In this document: piece after piece, positions 10,801 through 15,345 of the stretch
Numbering within the stretch: position 1 is the stretch's first letter
How the letters are laid out: every line of letters begins with the position of its first letter
Virus record (IMG/VR): IMGVR_UViG_2529292919_000012
DNA: 15,345 nt
Source of the DNA: a virus
Lineage: Duplodnaviria > Heunggongvirae > Uroviricota > Caudoviricetes
Strand: one strand, 5' to 3'
Position numbers: made by a program

Positions 10801-13800
10801 CAAATCACGACTCCGCATCAAAGTCATCGCAGACGTTCCAGACTCCCGCCGCCGCGACCTCGACAACATCCTGAAAGGTTTACTCGACTCCCTTATCCAC
10901 GCCGGATTTGCGGAAGACGACGAGCAATTCGATGACATTCGCGTAATTCGTGGTGTGAAAGTACCAGGCGGACGGCTTGGAATAAAAATCACCGAACTGG
11001 AGAACGCATGAACGCCACAATTCAAACGATACTAGAGCTTCTTATCCAGACACGAGGCAATCAGACCGAAGTGGCGAGGATGCTTTCCTGCGCAAGAGGA
11101 ACAGTGCTCAAGTACAACCGAGACAGCAAAGGCGAGCGTCATGTAATAGTTAACGGCGTCCTGATGGTCAAACAGGGCAAGAGGGGAAGACGATGAGACT
11201 CGAAAGCGTAGCTAAATTTCATTCGCCAAAAAGCCCGATGATGAGCGACTCACTACTGGCCACAGTTTATTGGTTTTCGTAACTGAGTCATTTTATTATT
11301 TTATTGCAACTTTTAATCTTTTATAGTGCGAAATAAATGGAGCTGGCATTCATTTCGCACTTTATGTTTTTGTTGGACTTATGTTATTTTGATTGAATTC
11401 AATTCAGTTAAAAAAAGAAGGTGATTGCTCCATTTATAAATGAATAGTCATCCCCTGTCTTGAATTCTGATGTTACTTTATTAAATGCTAGTGTGAAGGC
11501 TACAGGTGCATACCCAATTGTTGCGCCAACTTGATATTCATCAACAGTTTTGTTTAGCGATACTGTTGTTTGTTTCGTCTGTATTGTTTTTCCTTCGAGA
11601 GTATAGTTGCGATTGACATCTCGTCTTTCCATACCTGCAAAAATCTTGTATTTGAATCCGCTTGTATCGGACATATGCATTAAACCACGGGGAGCCAGCA
11701 GACCAAAGCCATTATCCGAATTGAAGGTTTTATCATTACCAATGGCAATGGTTGCGCCATATGCTACATATTGAAATAAGTTTCCAGTAACAGCAGAAAC
11801 TTCAGGGTATAATCCAACATTAGCACCTAAAATATCCATACTTGGTGTCATGGATAGCATCCCTTTTACAGTATAACCGTAGCGATTCTCTATTTGATCA
11901 TCCCATGCATGATATTTTTCTGCCCCAATAATCTCATGAGCTTTATTTTGTACTTTCTGACCGCCTGCGTCGGGGCCAACAACACCTATGTCAGTACCTA
12001 ATCGATAGCGAATCCAGTCATTCGCAAGGGAGTTCCATTCAATACCAGTGTGAGTGTATGCACTAAAAGCTCTGTCTCCAGTTACAGCTGTGTTGTGTCT
12101 TTTATTACTGCCTGATGGAGAGTAAATATCTTGCGCAATATGGAGAGATAATTGGCTCGAGTCTGAGATATCGTGGCTATATCCCAGAAATAAGCCTTGT
12201 GAGTAATCATCTCTGTTTTCATGTTTATTGCCATAAATATCATTAAGTATTGGTTGAAACTTCCCTGCATCATCATTTGCTAATGATAATGCAAGGCTGT
12301 TCGCGATAGCTGAACACGTGGTAAATGACAGAGCAATAAAGACGCCAGCGATGACACTTTTTTTCATATGTTATTGTCTTCCTTTTTTTGAATGGTGCGC
12401 GTATTTTACATACATGAGTTTGTAATACAAGGTGCGTAATCAATATGATGTTTTATAATTGCGTGAGACAATTGATTTATTCGTTTTTTATTGTGGTTTT
12501 TATTATCTTTTAATGTAGCGGTGTTTTTATTAAGTGTGTTTGCGTGGTGTTTTATGTTTTTTATAATTTTTATTTTATTAAATTTAAAAGCATTAGTAAT
12601 GGCTATTCTATATAGCAATATAAGAACTGTTACAAAAAAAGGGGGGCAATTACAGGTAGTTATGGATGATGAGTGAAACAGATATTGGAGAACCGGGGAA
12701 TGAATGATGTCTGAGTCTTATATATCAGAACTCCTTCGCTGTCGCTGGGGGCTCCTGTGCTTATGTCGTTTCCCCGATTCGGTTTTGAACGATTACCGAA
12801 TGTTGAAGAATTATGCCAAAATATAGAAAGGATTTACTGCATGAATACCCAATATTTACAGTATGTTCGTGAGCAACTTATGGCAGCTACTGCTGACTTG
12901 AACGGAGCAACGAAAGGCCAGCTCGAAGCCTGGCAGGAGCATGCACAATTTGATACTGGTACATACAAACGAAAGAAGCCGCGCATTCTGGATGTGGTAA
13001 CTGGCAAGATGATTACGCTGGATAATACGCCGACTTCCGGTAAGCAGTCGTACGCAAAAGGTTCATCCATTGCTTTGGTCAGCCCGGTTGAATTCTCAAC
13101 CTCTTCATGGCGCCGCGCGGTTTTGTCTCTCGATGAACATCAGAAAGCATGGTTGCTTTGGTGTTACAGCGAAAGCGTTCGATGGGGGCATCAGGTCACC
13201 ATAACGCAATGGGCATGGAGCGAGTTTAAAGATTTGTTAAGTAACAGAAAAATTGCAGGTAAGACACTGGATCGCCTGAAGACGTTAATCTGGCTGGCTG
13301 CACAGGATGTGAAGAGCGAACTTGCAGGGCGTGAGGCCTATGAATACCAGACACTGGCATCATTGGTGGGAGTGACAACAAAAAACTGGTCCGAGACATT
13401 TACTGAACGCTGGGTTGCAATGAAGCACATTTTTCTACAGCTTGATAGTGATGCTTTATTGCTTGTGACGAGAACACGTTCAAAACAAAAGGCAGCATTT
13501 TTACAGCAAAATATTGCAAAACTGGATTAAAAGCCATATACTTCATGCAAATTTGGTATGTTGTAAAAAATGTATAAACCCGCTGCCGAGTGGGTTTTTT
13601 TTATGCCCTGAGTTGTACTTGTACGGTAAACATGCTGGCTGCTATGTAATAGAGTTTTTTTAGCCTGTAACCTCTTGACGGCATTGAATTGCTTTTGTTA
13701 TGAGTTGTAAGCCAATGTTATCATCTTGTATTGGGGTGGTTATGAAGGATGGTGCGCTGCTCAGGAGTTCTTCACTTTTTATTGCCTACATGGGATGCCT

Positions 13801-15345
13801 TGGATGGGGGAGTGCTTATTTCTATGGATGGGGTACTTCTTTTTACTACGGCTTCCCATGGTGGATTGTAGGTGCAGGTGTTGATGATGTTGCCAGAAGT
13901 TTATTTTTTGCAGTTATCGTCATTGCTATATTTCTTATCGGTTGGGGTATTGGTGTTGTATTCTTTTTCGCAGTGAAAAGAAAACATTCTATGCAAGAGC
14001 TAAATGTATTTCGCCTTTATTTTGCTGTGGAATTATTGTTTGTGTCCGGCAATTATTGAGTTTTCTATATTGAGACAGAAGATTCAGGTACCTCTTTTGC
14101 TACTGTCAGCAGCGATTGCGCTGGCGGTTACAATTTCGATAAGATCTTATGGGCGATTTTTATCGGTATCATGCTTCTATGATAAGCCATTTATAAAAAA
14201 CATTTTTTTGAGATTGTGATGATTGCTTTTGTGGCATATTTTGGGCTTTTTTCATTTCTGACAGGATATTACAAACCACAGTTTAAGAAAGAATATGAAA
14301 TGATTAATTATAATGATGGTTGGTATTATGTTCTTGCTCGTTATGATAATTGTCTGGTTTTGTCTACTTCTTTCAATGCAGGTAGTAAAAGGTTTGTCAT
14401 TTATCAATCAGCACAAGATAAGAATCTTCAGGTTGATATTGTAAGGACCAGAATTTAATTGGCTGCATAAATAATATTTTAAGTTGCAAGTTGGCTATTC
14501 GTAGGAATAGAACCTTAGGCATGCTGAATGCGTTTTCTGAACATTGTTTTATAAACTGTGTCTGCTTGCTGTTGTGATCCTGCTTTTAGTGATGGTGATG
14601 ATGGATTTCACCAGCAGGATAATGTTGGTACTGACTGATGGCGCTCTGGTCTGCGGCATTGTGGTATTGCTGTGGCCGATGATGAAAGAACAGAATGAAT
14701 AATTCTTGACTTTTTTGTTTACTGTTTATTAAAAAATCAACCGCATGGTGAATCCTCCTTGGAGGGGCTAAATGATCGAGTTTTAAGGGCACGTAGCGAG
14801 TTCTGTTTGATCATTGCAGAACTTAGCGGGAGGCGCCATGCGTACATCACTAGTGTTATTCCTTTTATCATTTTCCTTGTGAGTTCTGGCTGCGCATTGC
14901 GCAGCCTTTTTTTTATGACCTGCCACTGGCAGATGGTCATCCTGTGATTTGATTCCGCTTCCGGCTTTTTAACTCTGTTCCTCTACACGGGAGAAATTCG
15001 ATGTCGATTAAACATTACGATGTTGTCAGGGCGGCGTCGCCGTCAGACCTTGCGGAAAAGCTGACACACAAACTGAAAGAGGGCTGGCAGCCATACGGCG
15101 GACCGGTTGCCATTACGCCGTACACACTGATGCAGGCGGTGGCTATTGAAGGAGAGCCACAGGTCGGCCCTTCATCTGAGCCGGATTGGTACTACGTCAT
15201 CGTACTGGCCGGGCAATCCAATGCCATGGCTTACGGTGAAGGGCTTCCGCTGCCGGATTCATACGATGCTCCGGATCCGCGCATTAAACAGCTGGCGCGC
15301 CGCAGTACAGTGACGCCGGGCGGGGCTGCCTGCAGATATAACGAT

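Follow-up and report, generated by a model that had tools for sequence, protein, structure and literature searches.

Three consecutive, overlapping open reading frames (ORFs) lie at positions 13700-14458 of the Caudoviricetes record IMGVR_UViG_2529292919_000012, a stretch of 15,345 nt (hereafter the window) that is the whole of contig AIEY01000029.1 of draft assembly GCA_000249115.2. Comparison with intact relatives shows that the three ORFs together represent a single conserved membrane-protein gene of prophages, a member of the TfpB/STM1630 family that is predicted to encode an inner-membrane protein and is present as a single copy at 13715-14458. Two single-base insertions or deletions (indels), 150 nt apart, break its frame. 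We infer that both are probably base-calling or assembly errors of the draft assembly, and the first of the two is more surely technical than the second. Homopolymer errors and errors of the incomplete-extension type would produce both indels in AIEY01000029.1, and on this reading the organism itself probably carries an intact gene.

One gene in three reading frames

The original prediction reported ORFs at 13742-14059, 14004-14219 and 14216-14458, and took them for a likely single membrane-protein gene with two frameshifts and not for three small genes. All three ORFs are present as described, on the plus strand, with the first and third in the same frame and the second in another, and the first is open from 13700 and holds internal ATGs at 13715 and 13742. 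Alignment to intact copies bears out the single-gene reading, as the breaks resolve into one +1 and one -1 indel. In a five-way alignment the window copy departs from the references at three sites only, which are an extra T at 14045 (+T), a run of A6 in place of A7 at 14195-14200 and a T-to-G substitution at 14243. The window allele at 14045 reads GTGTCCGG, where the intact copies read GTGCCGG.

It had been proposed that one protein might align across all three frames, and this is what is seen: the translated pieces correspond, one after another, to the 247-amino-acid (aa) protein encoded by phage 434 and by E2348/69. They differ from it by one substitution, an agreement far beyond chance. The first ORF encodes residues 1-110 followed by SGNY and a stop, the in-frame part of the second encodes residues 111-161 followed by NIFLRL and a stop, and the third encodes residues 163-247 with the change W177G. 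Residues 1-247 of the intact protein are all encoded, in order, across the three frames. A literal translation of the record stops at 14059 after 105 residues, and the uninterrupted frame of approximately 238 codons that is expected of the family is broken in the window copy by the extra T, the missing A and the stop at 14057-14059. We considered whether the +1 and -1 shifts could compensate for each other and rejected this, as a TGA follows four codons after the extra T in the shifted frame.

Apart from the indels, the window copy contains no nonsense codon, and its one substitution is also found in the intact copy of a sister IMG/VR record, G002. Among the near-invariant residues of the family, W177 is replaced by glycine and all other conserved residues are kept. 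Because both G002, whose frame is intact, and a Logan contig from run SRR094171 carry the same G, W177G is a real lineage polymorphism.

The original prediction also placed the second break at a T7 homopolymer (14203-14209). This run lies at the position given and is unchanged relative to the references; the break is found instead in the A-run directly upstream. Of the two causes that had been offered, gene decay and homopolymer sequencing errors, sequencing error now looks the likelier. The first break (14045) is not in a homopolymer.

Table 1. Coordinates of the interrupted gene and its parts, of differences private to the window branch, and of a split gene in a related draft assembly.
Feature	Position	Strand	Basis or remark
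TfpB/STM1630-family gene, full span, 744 nt	13715-14458	+	Base-for-base alignment to the CPT_434_68 and WP_001302581.1 copies
Alternative starts	ATG 13715; ATG 13742	+	13715 annotated in phage 434; 13742 family-conserved (M10; 238 aa when intact), from family alignment
Piece 1: residues 10-110, SGNY, stop TGA 14057-14059; called product 105 aa	13742-14059	+	PF27470 match on called gene
Extra T (+1 frameshift), GTG-T-CCGG, codon P111	14045	+	No homopolymer; 3 bases downstream of TTT run
Piece 2: residues 111-161, in-frame part of ORF 14004-14219	14046-14194	+	100% identity
A6 run, A7 in intact copies (-1 frameshift), codons K161/K162	14195-14200	+	
Piece 3: residues 163-247, original frame restored	14201-14458	+	Gene caller sees ORF 14216-14458 (79-80 aa)
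T-to-G substitution, W177G; residue conserved in at least 90% of family	14243	+	Common to G002 and Logan contig
TGATG, shifted-frame stop overlapping ATG (M169 of intact protein)	14217-14221	+	Read from sequence
Upstream intrinsic terminator, tR' of Q82-type late unit	13576-13602	+	Annotated as terminator in phage 434
Private 1-bp indels, window branch (n = 4)	10752; 12382; 14045; 14194		A4 to A5 (rusA); T8 to T7; +T; A7 to A6
Private substitutions, window branch (n = 3-4)	About 1197, 3007, 9880		
DEC9B NanS-p-type SASA esterase gene, split into 455-aa and 157-aa ORFs	AIGL01000014.1 1259-3108		T3 to T2 difference

Frequency of the two indels among related genomes

Allele frequencies were determined in 682 complete Escherichia coli genomes by using queries of 81-83 nt, so that one difference lowers identity below 99%. 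The +T allele is found in none of the 682, nor was it recovered by exact-pattern scans of viral_contigs and genome_contigs, and it is missing from both G002 and the Logan contig SRR094171_697. The 105-aa product that it creates occurs on one contig only among approximately 15 billion proteins.

The second indel has a different distribution. The run is A6 in 16 of the 682 genomes, A8 in three and A7 in nearly all others, and a single open frame is retained in approximately 97% of them. The A6 allele resides behind a lambda-type Q gene in A25, AUSMDU00014361, C7 and Z1323HEC0477 and behind a Q82-type Q gene in E105, RM8995-C1 and UTME-9, and the downstream neighbours vary. Copies labelled 'frameshifted' by the annotation pipeline PGAP (for example UTME-9 ABH539_RS19080, A25, E105, RM8995-C1 and C7) carry the same A7-to-A6 change at the same run; unlike the window copy they lack the extra T at 14045, and hence have one frame break and not two. 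The occurrence of A6 and A8, with A6 in several backgrounds, may reflect a repeat-length polymorphism among strains, as in phase-variable (simple-repeat contingency) genes, or equally well homopolymer sequencing error.

Sequencing error or gene decay

The principal alternative to sequencing error is that the gene is a true pseudogene in which both indels are real. The gene would then lie in a decaying, defective prophage, where the first indel lifts selection and the second accumulates neutrally, leaving at most a 105-aa N-terminal stub. We consider this unlikely, and one reason for doubt is the number and kind of changes that are private to the window. When differences over 13.4 kb are polarised against G002 and the finished sequences of E2348/69 and phage 434, four 1-bp indels and three to four substitutions fall on the window's own branch (Table 1). 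Neutral small indels in E. coli arise at approximately 0.1-0.15 per substitution in mutation-accumulation experiments. If this rate applies, the probability of at least four indels among eight events is approximately 0.005-0.02. The ratio of 1-bp indels to substitutions on this terminal branch, which is approximately 1:1, is far above the expectation for neutral decay, and the indel density on the window branch extrapolates to approximately 1,500 indels per genome. The gene also shows no further decay, and the +T allele is confined to one contig.

A second draft assembly of the same accession block, DEC9B (AIGL01000014.1, GCA_000249915.2, product P0031), provides a more telling parallel case. 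Like the window copy, its copy of the gene is frameshifted by single bases at two places: an extra T follows closely on a T-run (TTTTTTG[T]CAG), and A4 is changed to A5. The positions differ from those in the window, as the first DEC9B break is close to a T6 run and the second lies towards the 3' end, at an A4 run. Three further 1-bp indels, one of which splits a neighbouring esterase gene (Table 1), bring the total to five in 4.7 kb relative to E2348/69 and phage 434. That a draft from a sister batch should show this gene frameshifted at two other sites, together with three more indels in so short a stretch, is implausible biologically. A passage of PMC6256406 cites Hazen et al. (2012) as the DEC draft-genome paper.

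The form of the probable errors can also be considered. The window sequence TTTGTG[T]CC fits the incomplete-extension pattern. Flow sequencing characteristically yields an extra base a few positions past a run of that base, along with under-calls and over-calls of the runs themselves. Sequencing error is the best explanation because indels are about as numerous as substitutions on the window's own branch and because DEC9B has different frameshifts in the same gene.

Several observations nevertheless weigh against sequencing error and for real mutation. The primase gene of this prophage is interrupted by the insertion sequence IS100, its cI gene carries a frameshift that is common to G002, and the prophage may really be decaying. 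The rusA gene is dead in E2348/69 already, where it is annotated with an internal stop. The private indels are confined to tfpB (two), the dead rusA and intergenic DNA; no other intact gene is hit by any of the four, as selection rather than random error predicts. Only approximately 5% of the window homopolymers of at least 6 nt deviate from the references, and the extra T lies outside any homopolymer.

Further points on this side concern the A-run. A6 is present in 16 complete genomes with at least two prophage backgrounds, among them copies that PGAP lists as 'frameshifted', and it occurs with G177 and without the extra T in the Logan assembly contig of SRR094171, which derives from other reads. 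It is therefore possible that the change from A7 to A6 is genuine and has arisen repeatedly. The Logan contig, however, differs upstream and at two additional substitution sites, and so represents another copy or another strain. The same chemistry, if used for SRR094171, would repeat an under-call of A7.

Other explanations of the broken frame

A quite different possibility, and one to which we give very little weight, is that the A-run is a natural slippage switch or that the gene is naturally split. The hypermutable A7 run would change to A6, the shifted frame would end at the TGATG overlap (TGA 14217-14219, ATG 14219, corresponding to M169), and termination and reinitiation would yield chains 1-161 and 169-247 that work together. 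If this were so, slippage at A7 would constitute a heritable, reversible switch to a two-chain or an off state, and the toxin slot of lambdoid prophages would hold a small switch for phase variation. The TGATG overlap exists in the sequence, the break falls just ahead of the last helix in the predicted structural model, and both halves are frequent enough to have PHROG families of their own. Run-length variants occur in both directions in complete genomes (A6 in 16/682, A8 in 3/682), in at least two Q backgrounds and in several downstream contexts. A deletion-biased length variation of 2-3% at a 7-nt run is, however, equally expected from errors of long-read sequencing or pyrosequencing, and in AUSMDU00014361 further 'frameshifted' genes adjoin the locus. 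Relatives in the family do not keep the A-run, and their corresponding codons read RK, RR or RQ. In the window the upstream +T would shorten the first chain to 105 aa anyway.

That the ORFs are three separately evolved small membrane-protein genes, or one gene decoded by programmed ribosomal frameshifting, is scarcely credible: each ORF has a possible start codon and the fragments match separate PHROG families, but placed end to end the pieces make up one protein, which nearly all relatives encode without interruption, and a stop follows four codons after the first shift. Programmed frameshifting of the dnaX, prfB or IS3 type was rejected in particular since the first shift occurs in 0/682 genomes, so that there is no conserved shift site. 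The original prediction had reasoned that a distinct conserved family for each ORF would count against a single gene. Fragment families do exist (phrog_14371, phrog_17164 and phrog_3985), yet they prove to be pieces of the full-length family phrog_1521.

These three families, of 158, 86 and 79 aa respectively, represent N- and C-terminal fragments of phrog_1521 and presumably originated from copies that were frameshifted or cut off at a contig end. Because TfpB fragments have given rise to PHROGs families of their own, matching a distinct family does not prove a distinct gene. Many shortened products in the protein collection are partials from contig ends, since the gene, which most genomes have in two copies, interrupts short-read assemblies.

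Implications for annotation

If sequencing error is the cause, the consequences are ones of data quality. Single-base indels in AIEY01000029.1, and in at least one further draft from that accession block, would create false pseudogenes, the affected genes in the window being cI, rusA and tfpB, and pseudogene calls from these assemblies are not trustworthy without the reads. There is little biological consequence, as the gene, apart from the changes listed above, is identical to one recorded earlier from phage 434 and from hundreds of E. coli genomes. It is already catalogued and there is nothing new in it.

Genomic position and intact relatives

A megablast search with the stretch 13600-14500 found matches, for the most part with at least 99% identity, in 692 of 5,426 complete E. 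coli genomes, and also in phages 434 and 2B8. Both phages have the gene intact, as do E2348/69, E2865 and the majority of the 682 gene-bearing complete E. coli genomes. The closest known counterpart is gene 68 of phage 434 (CPT_434_68, UMO75332.1, 'putative membrane protein', 247 aa), whose product is identical to WP_001302581.1 of E2348/69 prophage PP2 and of E2865. The window and phage 434 share 99.7% identity over 901 nt and the same gene order, namely LpxR, YlcG, a Q82-type Q, tR', the gene itself, DUF3927/TciB and an esterase. Gene 68 is uninterrupted, unlike the window copy with its +T at 14045, A6 for A7 and W177G.

The window gene is the first after Q, pR' and tR', an arrangement that is typical though not universal for lambdoid prophages. 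Homologues in Yersinia likewise reside directly after Q, and the Salmonella gene adjoins a Sif/GDSL-lipase gene. By its position the gene is cargo of lambdoid prophages, carried in the interval between Q and the lysis genes.

The TfpB family and its predicted structure

The intact phage 434 protein, which equals the joined window pieces, matches phrog_1521 over residues 26-247 with an E value of 1.9e-154. The PF27470 'TfpB' signature is present on all 104 homologues found, and a precomputed match exists for the 105-aa ORF of the window. A Pfam scan of a local copy did not return PF27470 for the intact protein or the three pieces, and NCBIfam and PADLOC scans of the same four sequences gave nothing meaningful. 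The homologues are approximately 238 aa in length with 39-94% identity, and are found in E. coli, Shigella, Citrobacter, Cronobacter, Klebsiella, Enterobacter, Salmonella and Yersinia. The family is small: at 50% identity its members fall into 74 clusters in a set of 1.84 billion proteins. Relatives are detectable by tblastn in only three of 50,697 phage records (434, and 2B8 entered twice); the family resides almost entirely in prophages and hardly in isolated phages. Ratios of nonsynonymous to synonymous substitution rates (dN/dS) between intact copies are 0.08 for E2348/69 versus the G001 copy and 0.17 versus 2B8, values that indicate strong purifying selection on intact copies.

An AlphaFold model of the intact protein, built from a 41-sequence alignment that includes distant relatives, has a mean predicted local distance difference test score (pLDDT) of 85.9 and a predicted template modelling score (pTM) of 0.80; from an alignment of 23 close homologues, AlphaFold2 had given a poor model (pLDDT 56). 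Long helices are predicted at residues 12-45, 56-88, 98-120, 125-145 and 158-190, followed by a small C-terminal beta domain at 193-244. The window pieces, taken together, have the architecture of the family, with an N-terminal aromatic/Gly motif, hydrophobic helices and the C-terminal beta domain, collinear over the full length. Foldseek searches of the PDB and BFVD gave no significant match (best PDB E value 0.66, template modelling score <0.21), and the weak MscS-like and SH3-like hints in the structure search were none of them significant.

Literature searches for TfpB, TciB and DUF3927 found nothing about the TfpB family, and the phage 434 genome announcement is silent on the gene. The name TfpB presumably comes from the tfpB ORF of the Moraxella bovis pilin inversion region.

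Other features of the contig

A complete IS100 element (IS21 family) is located at 5531-7478, within the toprim/primase gene, with istA (6374-7396) and istB (5595-6377) both on the minus strand. G002 has no IS100 in its primase gene but carries IS100 sequence at another place.

As a mosaic, the contig combines two different E2348/69 prophages. Its first part (26-3724), which includes the immunity region, matches one at 2.62 Mb, and positions 3370-15345 match PP2 at 0.73 Mb; the two parts overlap, and cross over, in the cII region. The IMG/VR record G002 has the same mosaic, without the insertion in the primase gene and with tfpB intact. Because G002 has it too, the mosaic is a real recombinant and not a chimeric assembly.

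The cI repressor gene (minus strand, 2243-2956) is frameshifted at 2879-2885, at about codon 26, where the window has T6 and E2348/69 has T7. This frameshift is common to G002, which has a further -T at 2874. A search for independent support found the truncated 197-aa product on the window contig only, and the frameshift may be another homopolymer under-call.

In rusA, the run at 10752-10756 is A5 in the window and A4 in G002 and E2348/69. Finally, at approximately 4147, within a helix-turn-helix, O-like replication gene, the window is missing a 21-bp in-frame unit of G002, GGTGGGGCAGGAGCTGCCCGG, a difference that suggests a tandem repeat of varying copy number.

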